From a bacterium (GTDB lineage Bacteria; Spirochaetota; Spirochaetia; Treponematales; UBA12059), in NCBI GenBank assembly GCA_035530295.1, contig DATKVB010000009.1, forward strand, positions 13,587-77,586: a stretch of DNA of 64,000 nt, given 5' to 3'. Position numbers and translations under genes: made by a program. Under the pieces are notes generated by a model. It was not told the DNA's origin. It did not search any database and saw nothing but the letters and a program-made list of their open reading frames with translations. This document shows, one piece after another, positions 9,162 to 59,800 of the stretch; position 1 is the stretch's first letter, and every line of letters begins with the position of its first letter.

Positions 9162-12100
9162 TCAGTAGCCTCTGGCCGCGAGGCGCGCGTCGAGGTCGGA
9201 GACCTTCTGCACCGATAGCCCGCGCGGGAATATGGCGACAAGCCTGGTCAGCCTGGTCCTGGCGTTCAGATAATCGCCGCTTGTAAAGAATCCGACGGCA
9301 TCGTTGTACAGAGACTCGGCGGCACTGGAGAGCACGATGGCTGTATCGCCTCCGATGTATGTGGCTATACGGTCCTTGAGCCTGGAGGCGGCCTCGTTGT
9401 TCGGGTCAAGCGTTATTGCCTGTTCCAGCTGGGTCCGGGCAAAGGGGAACTGCGCAACCTGGCCGGAATCGAATATGCGCTGGGCAGCCTGCACGAGCGA
9501 CCGTGACTGGGCAATCGCCTTTGGATCAGGCGGCGGCTGTCTGAACCCGAGCAGTATCTCGGCCCGTTCTATGACCGTGCGGAGTCCGGAATAGCGCGGG
9601 TTGATGGCCTCGAGGTCCTTGAGGTCGCTGTAGGCTGTGGTCAGGTCAGTCCTGGAATCGACCTTGGCCTTGGCCTCGTTGAACATTCTCGCGAACTTGA
9701 TGCCGAACTGGTCGGGGTCGGACAGCTGGTCTATCTTCAGCTCCAGAACGCGGGCTTCCTGATTGAGCGGAAAGACAACTTTGACTTCCGATATCTTCTG
9801 TCGTGCCTGGTTGAACGACTTGATCGCGCCTGTCTTGTCACGCTTGGCAAGCAGGTTCGCCCCATCTTCGTAGTAGAGCTTGGCCAGCGATAAAAGCTGG
9901 CTCATCTCCGGGAAGAGCGGGGCTGTTACAGGAATATCACGGCCAGTCTTGACCGACAGCGCGGTCTGGACCAGTTTGAGCCAGTATTCGACCTCCACCT
10001 CCGGGGTCGTGTTTGTGGTGCTCCATCGTGACCTGGCCTGCAGTAGCGTGGATTCCGCCTGGTCGAACTGGCCTTGCAGGTACAGATCCTTGCCGCTGGT
10101 CAGGAGGCGCCTGGTCTCGGTGACGACGAGATCGTTTTCTGTTTTCAGTATGGTGTTGGCGAGATCCGAAAGCAGCTTGTCTGACTGGGTGCGCAGAAGC
10201 GGGTCCTGTTCGTAGGACAGCGAAGCGAGGTAGCGCTCCCGGGCACGTTCGAGCCGTTCCCTGGCTCCATCGAAGTTGTTCGCCTTCAGCGCGGCTTTTG
10301 ATTCTGTGACGCGGCGTTCCGCCTCGAGCCGGGCGGAGTCGGCCAGGCGCTTCTGCTCGCCGGCCTGCGTCATCAATGACGCGTTCTGGGCCACGGTGGC
10401 GCTTGTTGATGTGGACAGGTCGGCCGCCCGTGTCAGCCACTCCTGCACCGAGGCGTCCGAGGCGATGTAGCCGGGCCGCGATCGGTATAAGGCAAGGAAG
10501 GCGTCGATGGACGCGCGGAGGCCCTTGAGCGTGGTGTCGGCCGAACCGAGCGCGGCCAGAGCCTTGCCAGGGTACTTGAACACGGCATCGGGCAGCAATG
10601 GATCGTCTGATTGCACGCCGGCGAGCAGCGTGGAGCCCGTGGTCATATCGGTCTGGGCGGTCTTCAGGGCAGCCGCAAGGATTCCGTATTCATACCCGGC
10701 TGCCGACGCTATGGCCCGGGTCTCCATAGCGCGGGCATGGTCGGAAGCCAGCGCTATGCGGCCATCCAACAGGCCCTGTTCGGTGCTCGAGAAGTCTGAG
10801 CCATATCCCGCCTGCGTCCACACGGCGAGCCTCGAGGCCGACGCGCCCGATTCGTCGTGAAGAGTCTGTATCGATCCATAGGCCTTGACGAAGGCGGCTG
10901 CCCTGGCGTTGTACGCTGCCAGAGCCTCGGTCCTGGCATTGGCCGGAGGCGTGTACGCGGTGAGGGCCGCGGCTTCGGTATCGATGCTGGTCTGGATGGT
11001 CGCAAGGCGCGTGTAGGCCCTGGCCAGGTTCGCCGTCTGCAGGTACCGCAGGTAATCCGATCCCTTGAGCTTGAGGGCGGCCTGGCCGAGCGGTGTCGCC
11101 TGTTCGACCAGGTCGCTTGTCGCGTAGTGGCTCCAGAGTGACACCAGGGCTATGCCGCGGTCGGCAAGCGTGGCCACCTTGTCGAACCCGGCCTGTGCCG
11201 CCGGCCAGGTGCCGGCATCATAGGTGGCGCGCGCCAGTTCGATCTCCGCCTTGATGGTGTCATCGAGGGCTGTCTGCGCGGAGCCGAGCGCGCCGGCCCA
11301 GCCGGCATCGATGGCGCCGGCCACACCTTCGAGTTTTCCCTCCGTCTTCCTGCCCAGGACGAGGCGGAACGCGAACGGCAGGAACGAGTTGTCCGTCGCT
11401 GCCGGATTGTTGGCCGAAATGGCCGCGAACGTCTGTTCAAGTGCGCGACCCTGGTCGACTATGCCTCTCCGTATCTCGGCGACCGACAACGCCTCTGCCT
11501 CTGCCTTATTCCACGCTTCGGCTACCGCCTTGTCGTCACCCGCGCGGTAGGCTGCCGCGAGTGCGGCGAACGAGTCATTCATGGCGCCGAGGCCGTCCGT
11601 GAACCGGATGATGTCACCCGATATCGTTGAGACGCGCTGGAATGAGTCGTCGACGATGGCCTGGTCAAAACTGCCATCGGCGAACTCGGGCCGGTAGAGC
11701 ACGAAACCGGTTTCGTACAACTGCGCCGCCTCGGCGAATTTGCGGTTGTCTATCAAAACCCGGCCGTTGGCCATGATTTCCTCGAATTTCGCGCGGTTAT
11801 AGGTAAACAGGGCCAGGTACTTGGTCTGGGTGATGAATTCCTTGACGGCTGGATTGGGGTTTCGCTCGAAATTCTCGAGTTCCCTGATCATCGTTATTTT
11901 CTTGTCCTCGTTGGTCGGCTCCTTGACCATCGTATCGAGGAGGTTGAAGGCCTTGTCATTGTACGCGGAACGTATCTTGGTGATGCGCCTGAGCCGCTGC
12001 TGGGCGGCATCGAACCTGTCTGGATACTGCTTCATGAAATCGGTGAGATACAGTATCGCCTGATCATATTTTTGGTCGGCTATCAAGGTGTCGGCGTAGA

Positions 12101-12197
12101 CAAGGGGATCCTCACGGCTACCCATGCCCCAGGCGGCCGTCATGCAGTTGAGGAGAATACAGATGACGAGCGCGGTGCGGCGCATACTGACGTTCAT
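9162..12197 (-). CDS. TPR-repeat secreted/lipoprotein
   Basis: 1011-aa ORF with an N-terminal signal sequence and many TPR-like helical repeats. Its stop lies 2 nt from the start of the downstream phosphatase gene. Confidence 0.8.
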   Translation of the reverse strand: MNVSMRRTALVICILLNCMTAAWGMGSREDPLVYADTLIADQKYDQAILYLTDFMKQYPDRFDAAQQRLRRITKIRSAYNDKAFNLLDTMVKEPTNEDKKITMIRELENFERNPNPAVKEFITQTKYLALFTYNRAKFEEIMANGRVLIDNRKFAEAAQLYETGFVLYRPEFADGSFDQAIVDDSFQRVSTISGDIIRFTDGLGAMNDSFAALAAAYRAGDDKAVAEAWNKAEAEALSVAEIRRGIVDQGRALEQTFAAISANNPAATDNSFLPFAFRLVLGRKTEGKLEGVAGAIDAGWAGALGSAQTALDDTIKAEIELARATYDAGTWPAAQAGFDKVATLADRGIALVSLWSHYATSDLVEQATPLGQAALKLKGSDYLRYLQTANLARAYTRLATIQTSIDTEAAALTAYTPPANARTEALAAYNARAAAFVKAYGSIQTLHDESGASASRLAVWTQAGYGSDFSSTEQGLLDGRIALASDHARAMETRAIASAAGYEYGILAAALKTAQTDMTTGSTLLAGVQSDDPLLPDAVFKYPGKALAALGSADTTLKGLRASIDAFLALYRSRPGYIASDASVQEWLTRAADLSTSTSATVAQNASLMTQAGEQKRLADSARLEAERRVTESKAALKANNFDGARERLERARERYLASLSYEQDPLLRTQSDKLLSDLANTILKTENDLVVTETRRLLTSGKDLYLQGQFDQAESTLLQARSRWSTTNTTPEVEVEYWLKLVQTALSVKTGRDIPVTAPLFPEMSQLLSLAKLYYEDGANLLAKRDKTGAIKSFNQARQKISEVKVVFPLNQEARVLELKIDQLSDPDQFGIKFARMFNEAKAKVDSRTDLTTAYSDLKDLEAINPRYSGLRTVIERAEILLGFRQPPPDPKAIAQSRSLVQAAQRIFDSGQVAQFPFARTQLEQAITLDPNNEAASRLKDRIATYIGGDTAIVLSSAAESLYNDAVGFFTSGDYLNARTRLTRLVAIFPRGLSVQKVSDLDARLAARGY

Positions 12198-12353
12198 CGA
12201 TACGGTGCCGTCGAAGGCTCCTCCCGTGGTCGTGCACCGGGACGCGGACCCGGTACCACCCTATCATTGTCGGCGGGTTCTGGCGTTAGCTGAGCACGCC
12301 GCGTGATAACCCGATAGAAATTATATCAAACGTACTGTATATTCCATTGTAGC

Positions 12354-13616
12354 ATGAAGAGAAAGCCCGGACTGCTACTCTGTTTTGTCCTCATGGTATG
12401 CGCCCGGGTTGGTGCCCAGGGGGTATTCCCCAGCGCCTACGACCTCGTCTACAGTCTGTTCTCGCTTCAGGATCCCAACGCCGGCCTGACAACCTTCCTG
12501 TCGGCCCTGATACCGGTCGGCGGCAGTGCCGAAAGCATGGGCATGGCCTTTACCGCGGTGGCTGACGACGCCTCGTTCCTGGATCTCAATCCCTCTGCCA
12601 GCGCCGTGCAGGATCAGACCCAGTTTGCCTTCTACCACAACAACTGGATAGCCGATACCCGCATCGAAGGCATAGCGTACACGATGCGGCTCGGGACGAT
12701 CGGCCTGTCCTTGGGCGGCAAGTGGCTGTACTTGCCCTTTACCGAATATTCCGATTTCGCAGAGCGTCTGACCACCGGCTACTATTCGGAGGCGATTGGC
12801 ATTGCCAACGCATCCATACACCTCTGGCCTGGCTACTACTTCTATGGCGTGGCTCTGGGCGCCAACCTCAAGCTGGCATACCGGTCGATGCCTGACTTCT
12901 CCGATGACGCGGGCACGATCATAGCCGGGTCCGGTGCCAGCCAATCGGCTGTCGCTGTCATGGCCGACATAGGCGCGCTGACTCGGTTCAACATTGCCAA
13001 ATTGTACTCCTCCAGGAGCAAGAACTTTGCCGTGGGCCTGGCCCTGAAGAACTTCGGGCCGCCGGTTATGGGAGAGGCCCTGCCCACCGTAGCCACCGCC
13101 GGGGTAGCGTACAACTTCCTGAAGCCAATACTGATTTCAGGTGACATCAGCTTCCCCATCAACCTGGTCGATCCGTCGCTGAGCGAGCGGTTCTACTGGG
13201 GCGTTGGGTACCGGATGACCATAACGAACTTCTGGGATCTGCAGGCGGGGCTGCTGGTCAAGGGCGGCAACCCCAGGATCAGCGTCGGAGCCGCGCTCGA
13301 CTTCGCGCCACTGACGCTCGAGGTGAACTACACCCTCGACCTGACAACCCAGTTTTCTCCCCTCAACCGCATGAGCGTCGAGGCTCGTTTTGCCCTGGGA
13401 GACCTGGGGCGAGCCCAGAAGGCCGCCAAGGCGGAGGATCTGTACCTGCAGGGGCTCGACGCCTACGCAGCCGGCGACCTGGAACTGGCTATTTCATACT
13501 GGGATGAATCGCTTAAACTAAATCCATACTTCGATCCTGCGCGCGAGAATAGAGCTACCGCGCGCACCGCGCTTGAACTGAGAAAGCGCATACTCGAACT
13601 GCAGAAGCTCGAGTAG
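12354..13616 (+). CDS. outer-membrane beta-barrel protein (FadL/UPF0164-like) with C-terminal TPR extension
   Basis: 420-aa ORF with a signal peptide, the block SAESMGMAFTAVADDASFLDLNPSA and alternating beta-strand-like sequence. The C-terminus is TPR-like (AEDLYLQGLDAYAAGDLELAISYWDESLKLNPYF). Confidence 0.7.
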   Translation: MKRKPGLLLCFVLMVCARVGAQGVFPSAYDLVYSLFSLQDPNAGLTTFLSALIPVGGSAESMGMAFTAVADDASFLDLNPSASAVQDQTQFAFYHNNWIADTRIEGIAYTMRLGTIGLSLGGKWLYLPFTEYSDFAERLTTGYYSEAIGIANASIHLWPGYYFYGVALGANLKLAYRSMPDFSDDAGTIIAGSGASQSAVAVMADIGALTRFNIAKLYSSRSKNFAVGLALKNFGPPVMGEALPTVATAGVAYNFLKPILISGDISFPINLVDPSLSERFYWGVGYRMTITNFWDLQAGLLVKGGNPRISVGAALDFAPLTLEVNYTLDLTTQFSPLNRMSVEARFALGDLGRAQKAAKAEDLYLQGLDAYAAGDLELAISYWDESLKLNPYFDPARENRATARTALELRKRILELQKLE

Positions 13617-17307: not shown

Positions 17308-18290
17308 ACCCGCGCCGCTACCCGTTGATTGCCGTCTCTGTGATCATGCTTGGTGCGTCGCTGTCGTCATGCCAGAAGAGCCAGTCGGGACTACGGATTG
17401 CGGAGCAATTCGGTCTGGCCTACGCGCCGGTGACGATAGCCAGGCAACTGGGTTTCATGGATGAGGCGCTCAAGGAGGCCGGGCTGCCGGACAAGGTGGA
17501 ATGGCTACGGCTGGCTAATACCGCTACCATTCGGGAGGCCGCGCTGGCGGGCAATGTCGATGCCGCCTTCATGGGAATACCGCCGTACCTCATCAGCAAG
17601 GCCGGCGGCATGACCTGGCGCATCGCCGCGGGGCTCAACCAGTCGCCTAACGCGCTGGTCTCGGGCAGCGCCCGCATTCAGAACCTTGACGACTTCAAGC
17701 CCGAGGATCGCATTGTCCTGCCGCAGCCGGGCAGCATCCAGCATATATTGCTGGCCATGGGCGCACAGCGCCTTCTGGGCGACGCGAAGCGTTTCGACAA
17801 CCAGCTTGTCACCATGAGCCACCCCGATGGCATGCAGGCGCTGCTCGCGGGCAAGGAGATCGTCGCCCATTTTACATCGTCGCCTTATCTGGCTCTTGAA
17901 CTGAAGCAGCCGGGCATCCACCAGATACTGGACGGGCGGACCTGTTTCGGGGGGCCGTATACCTTCATCGTCACCGTCGCCACAGACAAACTGGCCCAGA
18001 CGCGCCCGCGGGTATACCGGGCCTTCATGGCAGGGCTACGGAAGGGCATAGATTATGTGCGCGAGCATCCGGAAGAGAGCGCCAGGATCCTTGCACCCCT
18101 GTACTCGATGGATGTCGAGACCGTCATGGCGCTGCTTGGCGAACAGGGTAACGAGTATGGCACGACTGTCCTGGGTTTGGGGCGCTTCGTCGACTTCATG
18201 AAGGAGACCGGCTATCTGCCCGAGAAATTCAGCTATGGCGACGACCTGTACTGGGATCCCGCGGTCGCTCGTGGCGACGTGCGTCAGTGA
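17304..18290 (+). CDS. ABC transporter substrate-binding lipoprotein (NitT/TauT, NMT1-like)
   Basis: 328-aa ORF with the lipobox LSSC and SsuA/TauA/NMT1-like sequence. The ATGA overlap couples it to the upstream gene. Confidence 0.75.
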   Translation: MNPRRYPLIAVSVIMLGASLSSCQKSQSGLRIAEQFGLAYAPVTIARQLGFMDEALKEAGLPDKVEWLRLANTATIREAALAGNVDAAFMGIPPYLISKAGGMTWRIAAGLNQSPNALVSGSARIQNLDDFKPEDRIVLPQPGSIQHILLAMGAQRLLGDAKRFDNQLVTMSHPDGMQALLAGKEIVAHFTSSPYLALELKQPGIHQILDGRTCFGGPYTFIVTVATDKLAQTRPRVYRAFMAGLRKGIDYVREHPEESARILAPLYSMDVETVMALLGEQGNEYGTTVLGLGRFVDFMKETGYLPEKFSYGDDLYWDPAVARGDVRQ

Positions 18291-19042
18291 GCCTTTTACT
18301 GATACCCCTCGCGCTCGCGGGCTGGCAGGCGCTGGCCATGAGCGGCGCGGTCTCGCCACTGCTCGTGCCCGGACTGGACGCCATAGCCGTCGCCTTGTGG
18401 AGGGACCTGATCCACGGCACCCTGTCGTACCAGCTGCTATTTTCACTTGGCCTTGTCGGAGCGGGGACAATTCTTGGAGCGTTCTTCGCGGTGATCCTGG
18501 CAGCCATCGCATCACTCGGCCGCGAGGCACTGCGCAGCGTCCGCCTGCTCACCGCCCTCTTGCATCCACTGCCCGGCATAGCCTTGCTTCCACTTGTCGT
18601 GCTCTGGGCTGGCACTGGCACTCCCGCGGTGCTCCTTGTGATGATTCATGCCGCCCTGTGGCCGGTGTATCTGAACCTGCAGACCGGGCTTGACGAAATT
18701 CCACAGCGATACCGCGAGATGACGCGCAACTGGGAACTGCGGCGCGCCGGAATATTCATGCATGTCATCGTGCCCGCGGTCTTCCCCTCCATGTTGTCAG
18801 GGCTTCGTACCGCCTGGGCCAGATCCTGGCGCGCGCTTATTGCGGCGGAGATGGTCTTTGGCGCTGCGGGCCATTTTGGTGGCATAGGCTGGTACCTCTT
18901 CGAGCGCCGGGTGTACATGGACACGCCGGGGCTCTACGCCGGGCTCTTCATGGTTATGGCGGCTGGCGTGCTGATGGATGCGCTGCTGTTCGGTTCTCTC
19001 GAACGAATTACCGCACGCCGCTGGGGACGGGATACGCGATGA
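18287..19042 (+). CDS. ABC transporter permease (NitT/TauT family)
   Basis: 251-aa multi-TM ORF with a BPD-type permease pattern. GTGA overlap with the upstream gene. Confidence 0.8.
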   Translation: MSLLLIPLALAGWQALAMSGAVSPLLVPGLDAIAVALWRDLIHGTLSYQLLFSLGLVGAGTILGAFFAVILAAIASLGREALRSVRLLTALLHPLPGIALLPLVVLWAGTGTPAVLLVMIHAALWPVYLNLQTGLDEIPQRYREMTRNWELRRAGIFMHVIVPAVFPSMLSGLRTAWARSWRALIAAEMVFGAAGHFGGIGWYLFERRVYMDTPGLYAGLFMVMAAGVLMDALLFGSLERITARRWGRDTR

Positions 19043-19806
19043 ATCGGCCAATAATCGAATTCCGCGATGTGACCTTTGGCTACGGCGCCACTGATACGGT
19101 GCTTCGAGACTGTTCGGTCTCGCTGGAGCGCGGTTCCTTTGTTGTCCTCCTTGGCCCAAGCGGATGCGGCAAAAGCACACTCTTGAGATTGGCCGCCGGG
19201 TTCCTGCGTCCCCGCACCGGGAGCGTCCACTTCGATGGCAAGGAGATCCTTGCGCCCGATCGGCGTCGCATCCTTATATTCCAGGAACAGGACCAGTTGT
19301 TCCCCTGGAGCAGGCTCCTGGCCAATACGGCGCTTCCGCTCCTGTGGGGGCCTGATCGATGTTCGCGTTCCGAGGCGGAGGACCGTGCCCGTGACGCACT
19401 TTCGCAGGTAGGTCTGGCAGAGAACCTGAATGATTTTCCGCACCAGATGTCCGGCGGCATGAAACAGCGGGCGGTCCTGGCTCGAGCCCTGGCGGTAGGA
19501 GCCGAGGCGCTCCTGCTCGACGAGCCGTTCGCGAGCCTCGACGCCTTGAGCCGGGAGAGTCTGCAGGAGACGCTGGTCAGCGCATGGGCGCGGCACGGGT
19601 CAACCGTCCTGTTCGTCACCCATGACATTCGTGAGGCCGTGCGCATTGGGGGCGAGCTATGGTTTCTGCACAACGCGGGACAGTCCGGCCAGATAGAGCG
19701 CATCAAGCTGCCTGGCGGATCGCCTCAGGGCGGAGCGCTGCGCGATCTGGACACGCCAGAAGCCATATCGGTAGTCAAATCGATACGCGAACGTTTGACG
19801 CGGTAG
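19039..19806 (+). CDS. ABC transporter ATP-binding protein (NitT/TauT family)
   Basis: Walker A GPSGCGKST, signature MSGGMKQR and Walker B LLLDEPF. ATGA overlap with the permease gene. Confidence 0.9.
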   Translation: MNRPIIEFRDVTFGYGATDTVLRDCSVSLERGSFVVLLGPSGCGKSTLLRLAAGFLRPRTGSVHFDGKEILAPDRRRILIFQEQDQLFPWSRLLANTALPLLWGPDRCSRSEAEDRARDALSQVGLAENLNDFPHQMSGGMKQRAVLARALAVGAEALLLDEPFASLDALSRESLQETLVSAWARHGSTVLFVTHDIREAVRIGGELWFLHNAGQSGQIERIKLPGGSPQGGALRDLDTPEAISVVKSIRERLTR

Positions 19807-21374
19807 AGTGTGACCTTCCAGTCACGTTTTCCGCTGTACGCGACTATTCGCATCCCATATACGGGTGAATCAAAACTGCCCACCGCGACACAGTCCTGCC
19901 TCAGGAATCGCTGCATATCGTCGTAGTATGCGGCGACGTTGCCATACAGGATGTTCCAGACCGGCCGCTCCTTATATATCAGGTCCATCTCCACAGGGTA
20001 CAGGATGTGCGTGATATTCCGACTACCCATGTACGAGGCAAAATCGAGCCGAGCGGCCTTCAGGTATGCCAGGTTGCGAAAGTCCAGAAGCGCACCATAT
20101 GGAAGTGCGTATTCGGTATTCAGGTTGCCGAGCACCCTGAGCTGCCGGCCCTCCGCTCGCAGCAGTGGCTCTTCATCCGCGAGCAAGTGCTTGATGGTGG
20201 CTTCATAGTCGGCGTAGCTCTCTGTGCCAGTGCGGCGGACATCGACCAGATTGTACGCCGTCGTACCTGCTACCAGTACCATAAGCGCCGCGGCCACCCA
20301 GGGCGCGGCCCTTGTGCCGCGATGGGGACTGATGTGCGATAGGAGCAGCGCCAGCGCCAGATAGCACAACGGAATCTCGAGCGCGAACAGCGGCGCTCCG
20401 TATTTTCCAAGCATCACCAACGCGGTGTTGAATCCCGCCAGCGCGAAGAAGGGTATCAGCAGCCTCCTGTTAGCGCTGACTATGGCCAGCGCGAGCGAAG
20501 CGACAATCGACAGACTATACAGCGGCATAAGCGGCCGCATCTCAGGTATGAAATAGGTTCCGGAATAGCGGTACCACAATTTCTGATACCAGTCAGGAAA
20601 GCGCACCAGCTTTATATACCACGGCACCCCGACCTCGACGCTGTCACCAAAAGCTATGTAGTCATGAAGGAAGTCGGGATTCATCCACAGGCTCAGCCCG
20701 ATGAATACCAGTGCGCCCAGAGCGCACGCCAGAAAGAATCCTGCCAGCGTCGAAAATCGGCGCCGCAGCGTCAGTATGATCCCGGTCAGTGCCGCCGCTA
20801 TGAGGAATGCCGCTGGATGGATGCCTATGGCTACCGCAACCATCAGCCCTGACTGCAGACCCCTGGCGAACCCTCCCGGTTCGCCTGCCTTGGGGAAGAG
20901 CCGCAGTGCCGCCAACACGAGCATGAGCAGCAGGGCGATCTCCTGTCGTCCCAGATGGGCGGCGCTGATGAACTGTGGGTCCAGCGCAAGCAGTATCGTG
21001 AAGCAGCCGGCCCGCTGATTTCTGTTGTGTTCCGGCAGGATCCTAAGGAGCAGTTGCCGAAAGGCAAGCAGCGCGGCGATACCCAGGGTCAGCGACAACA
21101 GGCGTGCCTGGAGGATTCCATACCCGCAGACAGCAAAAACGATAGCCTGCATGGCGTGATACAGAATTTTGACGGCGTGCGGTGCGCGCGGATACAGATC
21201 AAAGAACGGCTCGGTAGCCGTGATGGTTCCCTGGTTCAGCCAGGCTCTGGTAAGACCGCCGAGCCATGCTTCATCGCTGTGTATGAATGGGTAATAAAGC
21301 AAAGTAACTATATTGAAAAAGAGATATATAAATAAAAATAAATAGATAAAGTTGGCATGTAACCACTTGCTCAT
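19725..21374 (-). CDS. GT-C fold membrane glycosyltransferase (ArnT/PMT-like)
   Basis: Multi-TM protein with an early loop motif HSDEAWLGG similar to the DE motif of ArnT/PMT enzymes. ATG at 21374 follows GAAGG. The 3' end overlaps the convergent ABC ATPase gene by 82 bp. Confidence 0.65.
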   Translation of the reverse strand: MSKWLHANFIYLFLFIYLFFNIVTLLYYPFIHSDEAWLGGLTRAWLNQGTITATEPFFDLYPRAPHAVKILYHAMQAIVFAVCGYGILQARLLSLTLGIAALLAFRQLLLRILPEHNRNQRAGCFTILLALDPQFISAAHLGRQEIALLLMLVLAALRLFPKAGEPGGFARGLQSGLMVAVAIGIHPAAFLIAAALTGIILTLRRRFSTLAGFFLACALGALVFIGLSLWMNPDFLHDYIAFGDSVEVGVPWYIKLVRFPDWYQKLWYRYSGTYFIPEMRPLMPLYSLSIVASLALAIVSANRRLLIPFFALAGFNTALVMLGKYGAPLFALEIPLCYLALALLLSHISPHRGTRAAPWVAAALMVLVAGTTAYNLVDVRRTGTESYADYEATIKHLLADEEPLLRAEGRQLRVLGNLNTEYALPYGALLDFRNLAYLKAARLDFASYMGSRNITHILYPVEMDLIYKERPVWNILYGNVAAYYDDMQRFLRQDCVAVGSFDSPVYGMRIVAYSGKRDWKVTLYRVKRSRIDLTTDMASGVSRSRSAPP

Positions 21375-52604: not shown

Positions 52605-53594
52605 ATGGCAAGCATGGAGCAAACATACAGAGCGCTCATACCCGATGCCATTCCTGTCGATAAGGGAAATGAGAAAGTGGGTATGGCTTCAAAAACAGGT
52701 TTCGCAGTTTCAGATTCGGATAGACGTCTCATCCGTGACAACGCGCACTACATCCGTGAGGCGCTGTTCTCGTGTATTACCGATACGCAGGTGGAATGCT
52801 CCGTCGCCTTTGCCCGGTACCTGGCGCGAGCTGGGTTGAACGCCGAGAACTACTGGCTGTTCCTGCGGCTCGTCATGACAAACAATCCGTGGGTGCTTGA
52901 CGAGCTGATGCACGAGCGAGAACCGCGCCTGCTGTTCTCGACCATTCTGCCCACAGAGGAACTCGTCGAGACCGCCTTCCAGGCTCTGTTCTCAAGGCAT
53001 CCAGACGAAATATACCCCAAGGCTCTCGAGGCTCTGCTTGGCATAGTCGAGAACGCCTACTTCGACCCTGATGATGGATACCGCCTCCGCAAGCTGTCGA
53101 TCATGGACATCAACGCACTGGGCAAGTTCCTCCGCAAGGACGAGCCCCAGGAACATCCCGTCAACCGCCTTATCCTTGAGATTCTTGACAAGCTGACCGG
53201 TCTTGGGGAGTACTTCCAGGAGCCTGACAAGAGCGTGTTGTCCAAGCATGCCTTCAATGTCCGGTTTGCCTATTTCGACAGGGCCAGGAACATGGTCGAC
53301 GCGATACCGCATCCGTTGCTGGTTCGGTTCGCCGACCGCAGTTCGGCCGACCCCGAATCGGACTATGCCGACCTGATAACCAAGCGGCGCGCGCGCAGGC
53401 GTGACGAACGCGGTCGCTTCATACGTGAATCGCAGCCGGATGCCGAGCCGACCATAGTTGCGCCAACAGCAGTTGAGCCAACCTTGGCCAAGGCACCAGT
53501 GATTGAGCGAGCGATAGTCGAGACCGCAGCAGTTGGGCCGCCGCCAGTTGAGCCGCAAGCGGCTCCCAAGCGAAAGAGAAAGAAGACGAGCTGA
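52605..53594 (+). CDS. unknown-family protein, paralog 1 of 4 (with Pro/Val/Glu-rich, basic C-terminal tail)
   Basis: Shares NYWLFLRL, IYPKAL, DGYRL, DINALGKFL, NRLILEILDKL and IPHPLLV with the ORFs at 55639, 56359 and 57142. An alternative start at 52683 would give paralog-like N-terminal spacing. Confidence 0.7.
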   Translation: MASMEQTYRALIPDAIPVDKGNEKVGMASKTGFAVSDSDRRLIRDNAHYIREALFSCITDTQVECSVAFARYLARAGLNAENYWLFLRLVMTNNPWVLDELMHEREPRLLFSTILPTEELVETAFQALFSRHPDEIYPKALEALLGIVENAYFDPDDGYRLRKLSIMDINALGKFLRKDEPQEHPVNRLILEILDKLTGLGEYFQEPDKSVLSKHAFNVRFAYFDRARNMVDAIPHPLLVRFADRSSADPESDYADLITKRRARRRDERGRFIRESQPDAEPTIVAPTAVEPTLAKAPVIERAIVETAAVGPPPVEPQAAPKRKRKKTS

Positions 53595-53649
53595 TTCCGG
53601 CCACAAAACATGAATGTCCGCATCGTGTCGAGCCGCAAGGAGGGTCCTC

Positions 53650-54621
53650 ATGGCGAGGAAGACTGACACCAGTATCATTCGGGCCCGGGAAAAGCCTGTG
53701 GACCCAGCGTCCATACCGCCCCACTCCGATGTCCTGCTGGTAGAGCGGGCGATAGACATAATAAAGGACGACGCCTGCAGGCCCCACGATTCGCGCGGGC
53801 AGCCGGGTGGACTCCTGTACCTGCCGGATGGGCTGCGGCCCATCATCGTGGGCGATCTGCATGCGTGCGTTGACCATCTCGGCAATATTCTTGATCACGA
53901 CAACAACAGGCGCGATATGGACGAGGGCCGCGCCTACCTGCTCTTCGTTGGCGACATTCTGCATGACGACCGTGTCGGCTACATGCGCGAGACTGCCAAC
54001 TCCATCCAGATACTCAACCAGGTGCTTACGCTGGTAGCCACCTGGCCAGGCAGGGTATTCTATATCCGTGGCAACCATGATACCTTCGACGAGCGCCTGA
54101 GGAAATCGGGCGTTGCCCAGGGAGCCGAATTCAAGAAGGCCCTTATCCAGATTACTGGCCAGGCCTTTACTGACGCGGTTGCCCGCTGGTTCGAGGCGCT
54201 GCCATATTTTGCCATCGGCGATAGCTTCGTCATCGTTCATGCGGGCCCTATACGGGGTGGCTGCACGCGGGAGGAAATCATAGACATCTGGAGGCGTCCC
54301 GACTACGCGATGCAATTCATGTGGAACCGCGTCAACGAGTTCCATGGCAACCCCAGCCCCAAGGAATATGGCGAGACCGATATCAGGATGACACTCGAGT
54401 CGCTTGGATTGCCGCCCTTGACCCACTTTATCGTCGGTCACAACCCACTCTGGAACGATGGTGGAACGACTGGCTTGTGGGAAAACGTGATTGGCATAAA
54501 GAATCACCACATCATCTATTCCGGTTCCGGGAGCAAGGCCCCCTACTATACGCTGGAAGGCGGGTTGCTCAAGGCCAAATTTTCCAAACCAGAGCGAGCG
54601 GAGGTGTATTACTATGGATGA
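53650..54621 (+). CDS. PPP-type metallophosphoesterase (Ser/Thr phosphatase-like)
   Basis: ATG at 53650 after AAGGAGGG. Ordered motifs are GDLHAC, GDILHD, GNHD, VHAG and GHNP. Confidence 0.8.
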   Translation: MARKTDTSIIRAREKPVDPASIPPHSDVLLVERAIDIIKDDACRPHDSRGQPGGLLYLPDGLRPIIVGDLHACVDHLGNILDHDNNRRDMDEGRAYLLFVGDILHDDRVGYMRETANSIQILNQVLTLVATWPGRVFYIRGNHDTFDERLRKSGVAQGAEFKKALIQITGQAFTDAVARWFEALPYFAIGDSFVIVHAGPIRGGCTREEIIDIWRRPDYAMQFMWNRVNEFHGNPSPKEYGETDIRMTLESLGLPPLTHFIVGHNPLWNDGGTTGLWENVIGIKNHHIIYSGSGSKAPYYTLEGGLLKAKFSKPERAEVYYYG

Positions 54622-55528
54622 ACGACAACGCATGCTCGCCGAGCTCGATGATCCGGAGCTGGCTTCATATTTCTACCTTGACAAGACCATGCCCGAGGTG
54701 TTGCGTTATCTCGATTCCCTGCAGCTGACGCTTGATCCGCTCGCAGACGACATGCCTTTCAACGCGGCCGTCAAGGGGTATGGTGGGGCCAAGGATATGC
54801 AGGGGCACCCATGGATTGTCAAACCTATAACCAACAAGCAGGACATTCTATACCACAGGCTATGCACGCTGGCGTACCTCCTGGACCATGCTACTGGCAC
54901 GCTCGCGGCGCCCACGGGCATCGCGAGCATCGACGGATCGGTGTACCGCATAACCAAGGTCGTGCGCAAATCAATACAGATCAGCTCGTACCCATACCTT
55001 GACCAGCCATACATCGGCATCATCAGGGCCGACCTGGTCAACCGCTGGCTGTACTTTGATGAAGACCGCAATCCCAACAACTATCTGGTTGTCCACAACC
55101 GCAAACAGCGCCCCTTTGTTGTCGCCATCGACTACGACAAGGCCGATCTGGCGTCTCCCGTAATGAAGATAACAGGCGACCAGCAGAAATTTGGGTGGTT
55201 CCGCAGTGAGAAGACCCGATTCCTGACCCTGCTCCGACCTACGCACTTCGATGGCATATCGATAGACGTGTTTGATGCCAGGCTCAAGGCCATATGCGGC
55301 ATCACCGAGGCCGAGTTGCGGAGTATCGTCCATCAGCTACTGGACGCCTATTCGGACGCGGCCTATGCCGATGCTATCGTGGCCAACCTGCTGGCCAGAC
55401 GTGCCTACATCGATGAGTATTTCAGGCGCATGTTCAAGTCAGCAGCCGAAACAACCGATTCCAGGCATGATGATGACTACGCCGCCTTCGGTGATAGCTT
55501 CAGAAACATGTATAAAGACAAGAATTGA
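54614..55528 (+). CDS. atypical kinase-like protein (PI3/4-kinase type II / HipA-like catalytic loop)
   Basis: 8-nt overlap with the phosphatase gene. Contains WIVKP (candidate Lys), FDEDRNPNNYLVV (DRxxxN-like catalytic loop) and VVAIDYDKAD (DFG-equivalent). The functional call is tentative. Confidence 0.5.
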   Translation: MDERQRMLAELDDPELASYFYLDKTMPEVLRYLDSLQLTLDPLADDMPFNAAVKGYGGAKDMQGHPWIVKPITNKQDILYHRLCTLAYLLDHATGTLAAPTGIASIDGSVYRITKVVRKSIQISSYPYLDQPYIGIIRADLVNRWLYFDEDRNPNNYLVVHNRKQRPFVVAIDYDKADLASPVMKITGDQQKFGWFRSEKTRFLTLLRPTHFDGISIDVFDARLKAICGITEAELRSIVHQLLDAYSDAAYADAIVANLLARRAYIDEYFRRMFKSAAETTDSRHDDDYAAFGDSFRNMYKDKN

Positions 55529-55558
55529 GCGCATTTTGATCGTAATACCAGCGATCAT

Positions 55559-55587
55559 TTGACAATTGGGATTTCGGGGATTAGAAT
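55559..55587 (+). promoter_or_regulatory. sigma-70-like promoter inside the paralog locus
   Basis: TTGACA, a 17-nt spacer, then TAGAAT. The -10 element is embedded in the hairpin GGGGAT-taga-ATCCCC. It lies 52 nt upstream of the ATG at 55639. Confidence 0.5.
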
Positions 55588-55638
55588 CCCCAGAGAATAT
55601 TGTAGAGAAATGATGCCTTTTTTCATTCGGAGGTCACG

Positions 55639-56337
55639 ATGGACAAACAGACTGAGAAGGTGATCGAGCGGACCTGGTCAAAAGAGACCATAATGCAGGT
55701 AGAACTCGGAATCCTCCAGAACATGCTCGGGTGTCGCACGGAAGAGGCTGTAGAGGCGGCGATCAGTTTTGCCCGTTTCCTCAGTATCTCTGGCTTGAGC
55801 AATGACAACTACCCGCTATTTCTCAAACTGCTCGAGGTTGAGAATCACTGGGTAATCGATACGATGGTAGCCGACAAGGATCCGTTCCTTCTCATCAGCC
55901 CCATCCAGTCGAACAGCTACTTGCTGTACACGGCATTCAAGTTGCTGACGAAGTGGCATCCGGGCGGAATCTACCCGGTAACGCTCTCTATCGTGCTTGG
56001 CATCCTGCAGGCCGCGTATGCGTCGCCAAAAGATGGCTACAAGATCTTCTCGGTATCGATCAATGACGTCAACAACCTTGGCAAGCACCTGAACAAGGAA
56101 AACGGGCAGGACGATCCAAACAATCGCTGCATCCTGGACATTCTCGACAGGCTGGGCTCTCTGGCTGGTACCTCTACCAACCCGGAGAAGGAGCAGATGT
56201 CACGGCAGGCCAACAGTATCCGTACCTTCTTCTTTGACAAGCGCAAGAAGATGGAAGATGTGATTCCGCAGGTTCTTCTCGTAAAGTCGGATTACATCGC
56301 CAAGGAAACCGCCCCCCGCCAGATTTTTGCTGACTAA
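55639..56337 (+). CDS. unknown-family protein, paralog 2 of 4
   Basis: 232 aa, RBS GGAGG. Shares NYPLFLKL, IYPVTL, DGYKI, DVNNLGKHL, NRCILDILDRL and IPQVLLV with the other paralogs. Confidence 0.75.
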   Translation: MDKQTEKVIERTWSKETIMQVELGILQNMLGCRTEEAVEAAISFARFLSISGLSNDNYPLFLKLLEVENHWVIDTMVADKDPFLLISPIQSNSYLLYTAFKLLTKWHPGGIYPVTLSIVLGILQAAYASPKDGYKIFSVSINDVNNLGKHLNKENGQDDPNNRCILDILDRLGSLAGTSTNPEKEQMSRQANSIRTFFFDKRKKMEDVIPQVLLVKSDYIAKETAPRQIFAD

Positions 56338-56358
56338 GGCCCATAAAGGAGCGTGGAT

Positions 56359-57069
56359 ATGAAAGAACTTTTCGAGAAGAAACAGGATTGGACCGACGAA
56401 GAAGTCGCGAATATAGAGTACAGCATGCTCAAGGGCATCATGGGCACACGCACGGAAGAAGCTGTCGAAGCCGCCATGACCTACGCGAGCTACCTCAACT
56501 TTACCGGAATAACCAACGGTAATTACCCGGTGTTCCTGAAGGCACTGATAACCAGGAACCACCATGTGATAGATGCTCTCCTGGGGACCAGGGATCCGTT
56601 CCTCTTCATGAGCTCCATCCAGCCCAATTACTTCATAGTCGCCTCGTGCTTCAGCATTCTGGCCAAGTACCGCAAGGGCGAGATCTATCCCAAGACACTC
56701 GGCATCATCCTTGGCGTCTTCCAGGCTACCTACAACTCGCCGCTTGATGGATACAAGATCTATCCGGCCACCGTCGCCGACGTGAACTGCCTTGGCAAGC
56801 ACCTCAATGAGGACAAGGGCCAGGATGATCTGCTCAACCGCTCCATCCTCGACATCCTTGACAAGATCTCTTCTCTCGAGGGGCAGAATGTGGACGAGGA
56901 CATGGAAGATCTGGCTGTGCATGCCCACAACATCCGCAACAATTTCTTCGACTCCACCAAACGGCTCGTTGACATCATCCCCGAAGTGTTGCTCCGCATA
57001 GAGCCGAACATGGACAAGGATGTTCAGCCGCGCAAGCGCGTTCCTCTCGAGGCTCCGGCCGCTAACTAA
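56359..57069 (+). CDS. unknown-family protein, paralog 3 of 4
   Basis: ATG at 56359 after AAAGGAG; the track start at 56353 is a GTG. Shares NYPVFLK, IYPKTL, DGYKI, DVNCLGKHL, NRSILDILDKI and IPEVLL. Confidence 0.75.
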   Translation: MKELFEKKQDWTDEEVANIEYSMLKGIMGTRTEEAVEAAMTYASYLNFTGITNGNYPVFLKALITRNHHVIDALLGTRDPFLFMSSIQPNYFIVASCFSILAKYRKGEIYPKTLGIILGVFQATYNSPLDGYKIYPATVADVNCLGKHLNEDKGQDDLLNRSILDILDKISSLEGQNVDEDMEDLAVHAHNIRNNFFDSTKRLVDIIPEVLLRIEPNMDKDVQPRKRVPLEAPAAN

Positions 57070-57141
57070 ATGGCAAAATGGCGGTAGCCGCTGGTCTCGT
57101 CGGAGACCACGGCACCGTCGGCCAGCAAGAGGAGGGATCGA

Positions 57142-57843
57142 ATGCTCGGAGAGGCGTGGCCCATGTGGTCCGAGGACGAGATAGACGCGCTGAAGCTCGG
57201 CTATCTGAATGATATTATCGAGTGCAATGACGGCTACGGCACCTTTGCCGCGTTGGCCTACGCACAGTACATGATCAGCAAGGTTGGCATTACCTCTGAT
57301 AATTACCCCATATACTTCCGTCTGATAGAGTCGGGAAACCGCTGGGTAGTCGATACCCTCGTCGGTGACCGCGATCCTTCAAAGTTCTTTGGCAGCATCC
57401 AGCCGAATACCTTCATGCTCAAGGAATGCTTCAGCATGCTGACCGCCTGGAAACCAGGTGAGGTGTATCCGAAGAGTCTGCAGATTCTGTACGGACTCCT
57501 GGTTCTGTGCTACGAGACGCCAGAGGAAGGCTATCGTCTGTACCCGCTTACCATTCCGGACGTAAACAATCTGGGCAAGCATCTGGACAAATCCAAGGAT
57601 CAGATGGATCCGCTCAATCGTATCGTATTGACGCTGCTCGACAGGCTGGCTGGGCTCATCGAGCCGCAGAAGCCGCTGCCGGCTCGGGAGATTCAGGATG
57701 TCGCGTTGCAGGCGAACAATATCCGGGGCAAGTTCCTTGATATGACCAAGCGCATGAATGAGGCTATCCCTGATATTATCCTGGTACGCGGCGATTACAC
57801 TGCCGCCGAGGTCAAACCAGCAATCCCTGAAATCAAGGTCTGA
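57142..57843 (+). CDS. unknown-family protein, paralog 4 of 4
   Basis: RBS GAGGAGGG. Shares NYPIYFRL, VYPKSL, EGYRL, DVNNLGKHL, NRIVLTLLDRL and IPDIILV. Confidence 0.75.
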   Translation: MLGEAWPMWSEDEIDALKLGYLNDIIECNDGYGTFAALAYAQYMISKVGITSDNYPIYFRLIESGNRWVVDTLVGDRDPSKFFGSIQPNTFMLKECFSMLTAWKPGEVYPKSLQILYGLLVLCYETPEEGYRLYPLTIPDVNNLGKHLDKSKDQMDPLNRIVLTLLDRLAGLIEPQKPLPAREIQDVALQANNIRGKFLDMTKRMNEAIPDIILVRGDYTAAEVKPAIPEIKV

Positions 57844-57943
57844 TGACTGATCCGGTGCGGTCCATACGGGCCGCACCGACGTGATCCGCACAACGATCGC
57901 GGCCATGCACTTGAAAAATCTGCCGACAACGGAGCGTTGAGGC

Positions 57944-59800
57944 TTGTCATCGGGCACAGTACTGCGCGAACGCGCCATCATCAATGATTGCTACATACTC
58001 CGTGAGCGCGTTGGCCATGATGCCTACTGCGAAATATGGCGTGCCAGCGCACTCTTCTCTGCCACGAACTTCCTGGTTCGATTCATCGACGCCAACATCC
58101 CCGTTGAATATTGCGAGGCCGAGCGGCGACTGATCATGGATGCCTATGACGTCCGCCACGCGGCGATTCTCGATGTAGTCGAGGTCGACCGCTTCGGGAC
58201 GCTGATGTTTATATCATCGGAATACAGCGCACTGGTAACGCTCGAGCAGGCCTTGTCGGGCGGCATAACCTTCTCACTCGATCACATCTGCGGCTTTGCG
58301 CTTGAGCTTTCCCAGGCGCTGGACATGTTCAACCGCCGTGGGCTTGTCTATGGCACCGTGAACATGCAGGCTATATTTGTATCATTGGAGCAGGGCATCG
58401 TGACCGAACTCAAGCTCCTGAAGCCGGGGTATCTCCCGCTGGTCGGTTCGGCGAGCAAGCTTGATCCTGATGCGATGCGCTGCAACTATGGCTTCATGGC
58501 GCCTGAATGCAAGGGCGGCGCATTGACAAGAGCCGATCAGCGGGCTGATGTATATTCTCTGGGCATCCTGCTCTACAGGCTTATAACAGGATCGATGCCA
58601 TTCCGCGGAACTCACGCCGGGCGTGCGCTGGACGCTCCTGTTTCGGTCCGGCACATATCCAATGCTTTGATACGCCGGGGCGTACCGCCGGCGCTGGCAA
58701 GGATCATCGTCACCTGTGTACGGACAAACCCGGCGTCGCGGTATCCAAACATGGTAGGGCTGATCCGGGAGCTGCGCATGTTCCTGGATGACAGGCGACT
58801 TGCTACGATAAAGCGAGGAGCCGCGGACCCACTCGCCGACCTGGAGAATTTGAACTCAACCAAATCGGCTGGTGGCGCGGAACAGGTGCTGCGCAAGCTT
58901 GATATGGCAGAATACTTTGGCGCGCTGTCCGAGGGCATAAGTATGGAGCCGGATTCCGACTCGGGGCAGCGATTTCCAACCGGAGTATCGCTCGGCGAGA
59001 CCAGGTCGGGTATGGCGGGCGAAGCCGAAGAAATCTCAGAGATGGGCGACACCGATATCGAGAGCATGAGCGCCCAGGACCATGTCGACGCAAGCCTGAG
59101 CCTTCTCGGGATATCGGTGTCCGCCCGCGCTACCGGAGCGACTGGCCGGCCGGTGGCCACCGGGAACGCCGCGCTCCTGTCCGCCACCCTGGATGCATCC
59201 GCTGCGGAGACAGGGCCAGGGCCAGTACCCGGGGCGGCCTCCGAAGGCATGGTATCGATGTCCTCTGCAACCGGCCACCGTGTACTGTGGAGCCATGTGC
59301 GCATTGACTCGGAGGAGCTTGCCGCTTCGCTCATTGAAGCGTGCGAATCAGCGCGGCACAAGCGTGGCGCGTTCCGCTATATACAGGAGCCAGCTGGAGA
59401 GCACGGCATGCGGTTGCTTTCTGACCTTGTGGAACGTATGCGGCAGTCGTACTTTGTGCTGGACATGTCGACGGGCAGCCATGGCCTCGATGAGTTTGTT
59501 CCGGCAATGCAAGCGGCTATTGCCATATCGCTGCGCGATGTCTCGCCGGGCATCAGGCGCAGGCTCAAGACTCGTTTCCCCGCGGTACTGCAGTCGATCG
59601 GAACATCGGCTGATCCTGGAGCCGCGGCGCTTGCGTGTGCCAGGATGGCAACGCGATCAAGACCATTGGTCCTGATGCTCCGCGTCGTCGCCCCGACGGA
59701 TGATGCCCTTGGAACATTCTTCGAGGCACTGGCCGCGATAGCCCACCATGAGCGGCTCTGCGTCTTTGCGTTTTTCTCCGGTGAGCCTCCGGTAGCCTGA
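57944..59800 (+). CDS. Hanks-type pseudokinase with long C-terminal region (possible degenerate P-loop NTPase module)
   Basis: The kinase fold is retained (YGFMAPE, DVYSLGILLYRLITGSMPF, NPASRYP). The VAIK Lys is replaced in LVRF, HRD-x4-N reads VYGTVNMQ and DFG reads KPG. TTG start; no in-frame ATG lies nearby. Confidence 0.65.
   Translation: MSSGTVLRERAIINDCYILRERVGHDAYCEIWRASALFSATNFLVRFIDANIPVEYCEAERRLIMDAYDVRHAAILDVVEVDRFGTLMFISSEYSALVTLEQALSGGITFSLDHICGFALELSQALDMFNRRGLVYGTVNMQAIFVSLEQGIVTELKLLKPGYLPLVGSASKLDPDAMRCNYGFMAPECKGGALTRADQRADVYSLGILLYRLITGSMPFRGTHAGRALDAPVSVRHISNALIRRGVPPALARIIVTCVRTNPASRYPNMVGLIRELRMFLDDRRLATIKRGAADPLADLENLNSTKSAGGAEQVLRKLDMAEYFGALSEGISMEPDSDSGQRFPTGVSLGETRSGMAGEAEEISEMGDTDIESMSAQDHVDASLSLLGISVSARATGATGRPVATGNAALLSATLDASAAETGPGPVPGAASEGMVSMSSATGHRVLWSHVRIDSEELAASLIEACESARHKRGAFRYIQEPAGEHGMRLLSDLVERMRQSYFVLDMSTGSHGLDEFVPAMQAAIAISLRDVSPGIRRRLKTRFPAVLQSIGTSADPGAAALACARMATRSRPLVLMLRVVAPTDDALGTFFEALAAIAHHERLCVFAFFSGEPPVA

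Follow-up and report, generated by a model that had tools for sequence, protein, structure and literature searches.

A seven-gene locus conserved among Spirochaetia combines four paralogues of an unassigned family with a PPP-like phosphatase, an atypical kinase-fold protein and a Hanks-type pseudokinase

Bacterial signalling is known to make use of kinase-phosphatase pairs and also of pseudokinases. In the PknB/PstP and PrkC/PrpC operons a Hanks-type kinase is encoded together with its cognate phosphatase, the two presumably sharing substrates. Seven families of bacterial pseudokinase have been described, i.e. ActPs1-3, GLW, CP1, DYD and DLHK (PMC12599244; bioRxiv 10.1101/2025.01.12.632604), and neither source mentions spirochaetes of the class discussed here. 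We have analysed a seven-gene locus lying in a stretch of 64,000 nt (the window) of spirochaete DNA (Treponematales, UBA12059; assembly GCA_035530295.1, contig DATKVB010000009.1, positions 13,587 to 77,586). It encodes four paralogous proteins (par1 to par4), a calcineurin-like metallophosphatase, a protein with an atypical kinase fold (gene 3) and a pseudokinase. The data show that these genes are a functionally linked, vertically inherited unit. We tentatively favour, at somewhat less than an even chance, the reading that the unit is a cytoplasmic phospho-switch, with an abundant hetero-oligomer of the paralogues as its target or its adaptor. An initial annotation made from the sequence of the window did not recognise the arrangement as a described system, and in agreement with this no paper describing the gene cluster was found in a search of the literature. 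The novelty lies in how the genes are combined, in the type of pseudokinase, in the kinase-fold family to which gene 3 belongs and, above all, in the family of four paralogues.

The coherence of the unit is seen in its conservation. A scan of one genome per species gave 75 distinct loci (L005-L079), and the seven proteins were mapped onto 79 loci in total, all in Spirochaetota assemblies. The records carry the labels Treponematales, Treponemataceae, Rectinemataceae, Spirochaetales, Spirochaetaceae, Marispirochaeta, Alkalispirochaeta and Sediminispirochaeta, and one short contig with the locus comes from a Sphaerochaetaceae bin. As found here the locus is thus limited to uncultured members of the class Spirochaetia, in Treponematales-like and Spirochaetales-like lineages. 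No named isolate is a carrier among the matches listed (80 of 131 genome matches and the upper half of the protein lists), and cultured carriers are possible. Likewise none of 360 listed matches is a named homologue from a cultured species; all are from metagenome bins and are called 'hypothetical protein', 'metallophosphoesterase' or 'predicted phosphodiesterase'.

Two triads of genes, par1-phosphatase-gene 3 (present in 55 loci) and par2-par3-par4, are adjacent in nearly every locus that is sufficiently long, and they occur in three layouts. The first is the order of the window (Table 1), the second is phosphatase-gene 3-par1-par2-par3-par4 (L036-L040), and in the third par2-par3-par4 is convergent with par1-phosphatase-gene 3-pseudokinase (L001, L046-L069). 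Each paralogue of the window has a clearly best counterpart in the genomes with the convergent layout, so that the four paralogue types predate the split of the lineages. Three long loci (L064, L072 and L077) contain the paralogues with no enzymes within 8-10 kb, as might be expected if unrelated genes had come together without functional meaning. However, the linkage has survived three independent rearrangements and is found in dozens of species, over 40-75% protein divergence, with no flanking gene kept, and clustering of all open reading frames in the loci revealed no other widely conserved neighbour family. We take the persistence of the linkage despite rearrangement to exclude chance adjacency, which is left with scarcely any probability. 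The levels of divergence among the loci similarly exclude a single recently spread element. The initial annotation had named two outcomes as speaking against a functional unit, i.e. membership of the paralogues in a known housekeeping family and absence of co-conservation; both were looked for, and neither was found.

Table 1. Features of the locus and its upstream neighbour, in coordinates of the window
Feature	Position	Strand	Remarks
GGDEF neighbour, about 250 aa	51752-52501	-	Hydrophobic N-terminal segment; degenerate GGDEF (GDDDF); PF00990 on identical contig
par1 (paralogue 1), 329 aa	52605-53594	+	All-alpha paralogue domain and basic Pro/Ala/Lys-rich C-terminal tail
Metallophosphoesterase, calcineurin-like, PPP/ApaH-like type, active-looking from its sequence	53614-54621	+	PF00149, E 2.7e-10; invariant metal ligands
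Gene 3, 304 aa, atypical protein-kinase-like fold (HipA/CtkA/PI4KII-like), active-looking	54614-55528	+	Predicted by AlphaFold2 with Foldseek
Sigma-70-type promoter-like site, TTGACA-17-TAGAAT, for par2-par3-par4	55559-55587	+	11/12 match
Shine-Dalgarno GGAGG of par2	55629-55633	+	Invariant in 28/28 aligned loci
par2 (paralogue 2), 232 aa, most conserved member	55639-56337	+	
par3 (paralogue 3), 238 aa from GTG	56353-57069	+	Gene callers use ATG two codons later, 236 aa
par4 (paralogue 4), 233 aa	57142-57843	+	
Hanks-type pseudokinase, 618 aa	57944-59800	+	PF00069, 45 bits (cutoff 31.7)

All seven genes are found as open reading frames on one strand, between 52605 and 59800, as the initial annotation had it, and the gene order that it reported recurs in related genomes. 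The rates at which the proteins have diverged are very different (Table 2). The paralogues par2 and par3 are 74-87% identical to their counterparts, compared with 43-56% for the phosphatase and gene 3, so the paralogues are the slowest-evolving genes of the set.

Table 2. Median identity to the window protein in loci of the same-strand and convergent layouts
Protein	Same-strand layout	Convergent layout
par2	87%	74%
par3	86%	77%
par4	71%	49%
par1	64%	43%
Phosphatase	56%	46%
Gene 3	56%	43%
Pseudokinase	31%	25%

The relationship of the four paralogues, proposed in the initial annotation, is clear. They align over their full length with 33-44% identity overall (33-39% to par1 and 39-44% to par2), and a search of the whole 64-kb window with the family hidden Markov model (HMM) gives these four and no others, par1 with E 8e-91. 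In an alignment of the four with 29 orthologues 24 columns are invariant across the paralogue types, among them the polar residues N69, D74, Y112, D143, N145, K149, Q157, N162, D170, R195 and D200. We agree with the initial annotation that the paralogues cannot be assigned to a family. Neither the four window proteins nor 33 family members scanned singly match anything in Pfam-A, NCBIfam or PADLOC, and no relative was found on searching PDB sequences with the family profile. The AlphaFold2 model of par2 is all-alpha with 12 helices and a low-confidence C-terminal tail (mean predicted local distance difference test score (pLDDT) 76, predicted template modelling score (pTM) 0.68). Comparison of this model with the PDB and BFVD using Foldseek gave nothing at E<0.1; the top, non-significant, entries are armadillo, HEAT, TOG, MIF4G, TPR and 14-3-3-like helical proteins, with TM-scores of no more than 0.38. 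Homology between the paralogues and gene 3 was considered and rejected (hhalign probability 2.4%).

The family is a narrow one, since an HMM search of 1.84 billion representative proteins gave only 214 clusters. There are more than 1300 homologues of par2; the best 120 are 71-100% identical to it and none has a functional name, and those with an organism label are from Spirochaetota metagenome bins. A motif IPxxLL is kept near the C-terminus of all paralogue types, within the low-confidence tail. By analogy it could be a docking peptide. A fifth paralogue type, shorter at about 189 aa and with 22-32% identity to par1-4, ends exactly at this motif. It lies near the locus in genomes with the convergent layout (e.g. 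L001 18965-19534, - strand, and also L052 18949), and forms a group of about 25 representative clusters.

The tail of par1 (about residues 245-329, window about 53340-53594) is Pro/Ala-rich and ends in KRKRKK. Two related proteins (P0250 and P0271) have longer tails of Lys, Arg, Pro and Ala, of a kind found in some nucleoid-associated proteins. The par1 of the convergent layout (about 240 aa) lacks the basic tail, and there it is the pseudokinase that ends in a basic amphipathic stretch.

The number of paralogues is variable. In four genomes (L017, L022, L024 and L034) the par2-par3-par4 triad is present twice, the second copy 8.1-8.3 kb downstream of the other and 94-98% identical to it in nucleotides (in L017 the two lie at 10001-12400 and 18262-20660), in the order par2-3-4, pseudokinase, GGDEF, par1, phosphatase, gene 3, par2'-3'-4'. 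The second copy has arisen by recent duplication, or else gene conversion has kept the two alike. In four divergent genomes (L075, L076, L078 and L079; par2 about 60% identical) there are extra upstream paralogue pairs (about 40% identical), giving up to seven family members per locus, and these still adjoin the phosphatase and gene 3 on contigs long enough to tell. In a Spirochaetaceae bin (4572_59) par2 and par3 are fused in frame (L072 10001-11329, + strand; par2 1-225 to par3 10-234, 442 aa), with no par4 or enzymes detected nearby. It is the only fusion that looks clean. Other candidate Rosetta-stone fusions among long family members were rejected as mostly chimeric or mis-called; P0306, for instance, includes an epimerase fragment, and the N-terminus of P0249 is in the wrong frame.

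The par2-par3-par4 triad has its own expression signals. The initial annotation pointed to an internal promoter, and the site is present and conserved upstream of par2 across the loci; TTGACA-N17-TAGAAT is the best, and only, 11/12 match in the 9.5 kb scanned. Within the 160 nt upstream of par2 a promoter-like site matching at least 9/12 positions is found in 66 of 73 loci, in most of the 73 with a TTGAC-type -35 element (usually TTGACA), a spacer of 16-17 nt and a TAnAnT -10 element. When 28 loci covering every layout are aligned, the A-tract that precedes the promoter, its two elements (-35 and -10), a leader of some 50 nt and the GGAGG, which lies 5-8 nt before the start codon, are in register. 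From its sequence the promoter looks strong. The slow evolution of the paralogues taken with these signals fits an abundant protein with many constrained contacts. In the window a perfect 7+7 inverted repeat (GGGGATT-AG-AATCCCC, 55576-55591, + strand) covers the -10 element. It is partly kept in L004 and absent from the other 26 aligned loci, and so is probably not a conserved operator. An Rfam search of the intergenic regions gave no riboswitch or known RNA at E<=1.

We turn now to the enzymes. The phosphatase has the motifs GDLH, GD..H.D, GNHD, HAGP and GHNP, invariant in 58 orthologues at the loci and 24 from databases, so that with the PF00149 match it has a calcineurin-like fold with the complete set of metal ligands of the PPP family. 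The window motifs GDLHA, GDILHDDR and GNHD correspond to the canonical PPP motifs GDxHG, GDxVDRG and GNHE, so motifs 1 and 3 are each off by one residue and motif 2 is altered. The family profile matches BSU1 (8e-6), a PPP Ser/Thr phosphatase (6tz6, 1.8e-3) and an ApaH-like protein (2.3e-3) in the PDB, while calcineurin, PP5 and rdgC appear only at E of at least 0.065. Judged on these motifs we would class the protein as a divergent PPP/ApaH-like enzyme whose metal site appears intact, and the initial description of an active-looking PPP-type phosphatase is a good one to that extent. On identical contigs gene callers begin the protein at Met13 (53650), and this is probably the true start.

The phosphatase gene and gene 3 overlap by 8 nt ATGGATGA (54614-54621), as had been noticed initially, with a GGAGG sequence 9 nt upstream. 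The protein sequences at the overlap, i.e. ...VYYYG at the phosphatase C-terminus and MDE at the N-terminus of gene 3, are conserved. About 240 homologues were found for each of the two proteins, from environmental bins.

Gene 3 gave a confident AlphaFold2 model (pLDDT 86, pTM 0.85). The Foldseek matches in the PDB are HipA (E 7.6e-5), CtkA (1.3e-4) and PI4KIIα (2e-4), with HipT and PI4KIIIβ, all ahead of Hanks kinases. The matches of HipA-like fold have E 7.6e-5 to 1e-3 and TM-scores of 0.40-0.44. In the model the invariant K70 is on strand β3, ahead of a long αC-like helix, the invariant D149-E-D-R-N-P-N-N156 is a loop between an αE-like helix and the next strand, and the invariant I172-D-x-D175 follows β8. 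The invariant D151-R-N-P-N-N156 and D173 are placed as expected in the model, and may correspond to the catalytic loop and the metal-binding Asp after β8 of the PI3/PI4-kinases, as judged by motif and secondary structure rather than by residue-level superposition. The catalytic loop of the PI3/4-kinases is of the DRHxxN type, and that of gene 3 resembles this more than it does the HipA type. The sequence itself has no recognised relative: neither the window protein nor any of 30 orthologues matches HipA_C (PF07804) at E<=1, and gene 3 has no match to PF00454 (PI3/PI4-kinase) in Pfam, to NCBIfam models or to PDB sequences. From the model and the intact loop we read gene 3 as a probable active kinase, in keeping with the non-Hanks atypical kinase that was initially proposed.

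The last gene was described initially as a Hanks-type pseudokinase with a long C-terminal region, and we concur. The PF00069 match is well above its cutoff (Table 1). An active Hanks kinase requires the VAIK Lys, the HRD Asp, the loop Asn and the DFG Asp, in place of which we find R, T, A and K. On comparison with Mycobacterium tuberculosis PknB the changes are Lys to Arg (LVRF), HRD to YGT, Asn to Ala and DFG to KPG. The HRD Asp is absent in 49 of 49 aligned orthologues, and the Lys and the DFG Asp are lost in nearly all of them; two orthologues (L049 and L051) keep the Lys and the DFG Asp, with HKN replacing HRD. The catalytic residues are thus replaced in the window and in its orthologues, making this protein a pseudokinase, and as judged from the alignment the state is a conserved one rather than a recent decay. 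In the convergent layout the 692-aa gene following gene 3 is a weak but real homologue of the pseudokinase domain, with HHN and RNIG for HRD and DFG. Beyond the kinase-like domain (residues about 1-290) there is a linker, which varies and is probably disordered, and then a C-terminal region of about 170 aa with weak conservation; for the C-terminal half no relative was found in the PDB.

Gene 3 and the phosphatase lend themselves to another reading, in which gene 3 is a PI4K-type kinase of a lipid or small molecule, the phosphoesterase hydrolyses its product or a related phosphoester, and the paralogues bind or carry the ligand. Among the significant structural matches of gene 3 (E<=0.001) the highest TM-score (0.50) is that of the lipid kinase PI4KIIα, though a CtkA chain (E 2.2e-3) scores 0.49/0.51. 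With the form of the catalytic loop, this makes a non-protein substrate of gene 3 possible. Calcineurin-like phosphoesterases include many non-protein hydrolases, and the paralogues have many invariant polar residues, as in a ligand site. By contrast, the phosphatase profile matches PPP protein phosphatases first, and the conserved pseudokinase is a protein with no obvious metabolic role. The locus encodes no membrane segment or lipid-binding domain, and no biosynthetic genes are co-conserved with it. We regard this reading as quite unlikely.

The initial annotation also suggested that the locus might be a conflict or defence module, or a set of effectors diversified by paralogy. A reading of this kind is that a HipA-like toxin kinase is neutralised by the phosphatase, as part of a toxin-antitoxin, anti-phage or conflict system, the paralogues being diversified sensors or effectors. 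The fold of gene 3 does resemble HipA and HipT, and the pseudokinase has sub-threshold matches to kinase models of defence systems (PD-T4-6, mad6 and PglW). In PADLOC-DB however the pseudokinase matches generic kinase-domain models, and the other six proteins match nothing. The conserved unit contains no gene for a helix-turn-helix antitoxin (HipB) or a HipS-like protein, and gene 3 has no HipA_C match. The paralogues are the most conserved genes of the locus and not diversified, and their four orthogroups are older than the split of two orders. No relative of the locus was found on IMG/VR viral contigs, in a phage collection or on PLSDB plasmids, which argues against either a defence or an effector role.

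Nor does the composition indicate a foreign source. From counts on single 60-nt lines the initial annotation gave about 52% G+C inside par2 and about 72% in the flanking GGDEF gene, and suggested separate ancestry. The first value is close to that of the whole gene (0.524, lines 0.45-0.58), but the GGDEF gene is 0.639 (lines 0.52-0.75), with a window mean of 0.594. The seven genes range from 0.52 to 0.60. Their deficit is confined to codon positions 1 and 2, while at position 3 their G+C (0.67-0.74) is like that of the flanking genes (0.70-0.80). The dip thus arises from amino-acid composition rather than foreign origin, and separate ancestry is not supported. The GGDEF gene, which had served as the outgroup, itself has orthologues adjoining the locus in about 14 other genomes. 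With native codon composition, and chromosomal neighbours that are common to close relatives, we consider a toxin or defence function very improbable.

These upstream neighbours are Fur, exonuclease I and the GGDEF gene. Its orthologues, with 43-75% identity, are found no more than 400 nt from par1 in nine loci and just after the pseudokinase in five more, most having a degenerate GG[DE]EF motif. The association is partial, and is seen in the Treponematales-type layout only; the GGDEF gene may be an accessory that belongs to the locus in certain lineages. The convergent layout alone has another neighbour: in 15 of its loci (e.g. L001 17137-18990, + strand) a protein of about 611-617 aa, with one hydrophobic segment and no Pfam match, is encoded beside par1 and transcribed divergently from it. 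Long antisense open reading frames run over the paralogues and the phosphatase in the window (56200-56928, 53419-54633 and 57379-57984, all - strand), and homologous frames recur in up to 63 loci. We judge these to be shadows of a strongly conserved coding frame rather than conserved genes; the large extra clusters of open reading frames in the loci are likewise antisense shadows of the paralogues and gene 3.

How might the parts work together? In the phospho-switch that we favour, gene 3 would be the writer and the translationally coupled PPP-like metallophosphatase the eraser. Since the pseudokinase cannot catalyse phosphotransfer it is most likely a scaffold or an allosteric regulator, in which the variable linker and the C-terminal region could serve for input or for localisation. 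Transcribed from their own promoter, which looks strong, par2, par3 and par4 probably form an abundant hetero-oligomer, and par1, which is always co-transcribed with both enzymes, probably links these to the par2-4 complex. The complex would be either the target of the switch or an adaptor through which it acts. Formation of a complex is supported, indirectly, by the slow evolution of par2 and par3 and by the single par2::par3 fusion, and the IPxxLL motif kept in all paralogue types also counts in favour of the scheme. A phospho-relay, which was among the initial suggestions, would be a plausible description of the locus. By hydropathy no protein of the seven contains a hydrophobic stretch of membrane-spanning length, in keeping with a cytoplasmic unit.

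Several points weigh against this scheme. We infer, rather than observe, the connection of the paralogues with phosphorylation, and there is no Ser or Thr that is invariant across the four paralogue types. Some loci have the paralogues with no enzymes nearby, as noted above. A lipid kinase is among the proteins closest to gene 3 in structure, and has the best TM-score. The par2 model has moderate confidence and no informative fold neighbour, and the fusion is a single case in a metagenome bin that could be an assembly artefact. What the data establish is the gene content, the paralogy, the state of the active sites, the fold class of gene 3, the co-conservation, the conserved promoter and the native codon composition. 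A protein substrate, the paralogues as substrate or adaptor, their hetero-oligomer and the scaffold role of the pseudokinase are put forward here as things that we infer.

A related explanation gives the leading part to the paralogues, as building blocks of a filament, lattice or scaffold specific to spirochaetes, with the enzymes and the pseudokinase only tuning assembly. Between the layouts par2 and par3 keep 74-77% identity compared with 43-46% for the enzymes, there are four to seven paralogues per locus with recent triad duplications, and the strong expression signals are conserved. The paralogue fold is predicted to be α-solenoid-like, with ARM, HEAT and TOG proteins at the head of the list of non-significant matches. 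On the other hand there is no coiled-coil or known polymer-forming fold, and the fold matches are not significant (E>0.1, TM-score <=0.38). This explanation overlaps largely with the phospho-switch, and sequence does not separate the two; we think it unlikely. Going further than the phospho-switch, the paralogues could be a new abundant intracellular assembly of free-living spirochaetes whose state is set by the trio of writer, eraser and pseudo-enzyme, i.e. a self-contained phospho-regulated machine without described counterpart. The trio would then draw on a new kinase-fold family, a divergent PPP phosphatase and a new family of bacterial pseudokinases. We rate this as rather unlikely, if slightly less so than the purely structural explanation.

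The locus is of interest for several reasons. Three of its families, i.e. the paralogues, gene 3 and this type of pseudokinase, have no curated model, and the conservation of par2 and par3 (74-87%, with the enzymes at about 45-55%) is at a level usual for core machinery. Should a dedicated kinase and phosphatase indeed act on the paralogues, bacteria would have a Ser/Thr-style signalling unit of a new type, and there would be a further case of a bacterial pseudokinase with a function. Should the paralogues build a structure, the cell biology of spirochaetes would gain a component. In either case the proteins of the locus make a small, testable set that lends itself to co-expression and structural work.

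It remains to compare the locus with known systems. The best structural neighbours of gene 3 are HipA, HipT and Helicobacter pylori CtkA (E 7.6e-5 to 1e-3, TM-scores 0.40-0.50), and HipT and CtkA are similar to it in size. Gene 3 differs from them in lacking a HipA_C match and a partner of HipB or HipS type, and in being vertically inherited and paired with a phosphatase. Its DRxNxN-type catalytic loop and ID-type metal loop look similar to those of PI4KIIα, the significant match with the top TM-score (0.50). Unlike PI4KIIα, gene 3 is bacterial and cytoplasmic, with no PF00454 match and no palmitoylation or membrane-binding region. The encoding of a PPP-like catalytic subunit together with all-alpha, solenoid-like proteins recalls the PP2A A/B56 and PP5 TPR holoenzymes, but this is an analogy only, since the paralogues have no significant structural or sequence similarity to the helical subunits (E>0.1, TM-score <=0.38).

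Our pseudokinase resembles the seven described families in having a Hanks-derived domain that is conserved as a family with all three catalytic residues replaced. It differs in the replacements (LRF, YG[TC] and KPG), in its spirochaete hosts and in the absence of their associated domains, and it is set apart on the basis of the published descriptions only. Finally, the PknB/PstP and PrkC/PrpC operons have in common with the present locus a kinase encoded with a phosphatase, and a Hanks-type domain. Here however it is the Hanks protein that is dead, while the likely active kinase has a HipA/PI4KII-like fold and the phosphatase is not a PP2C enzyme but PPP-like. PASTA, FHA and membrane domains are all lacking, and four paralogues of a family with no assignment are an integral part of the conserved unit.

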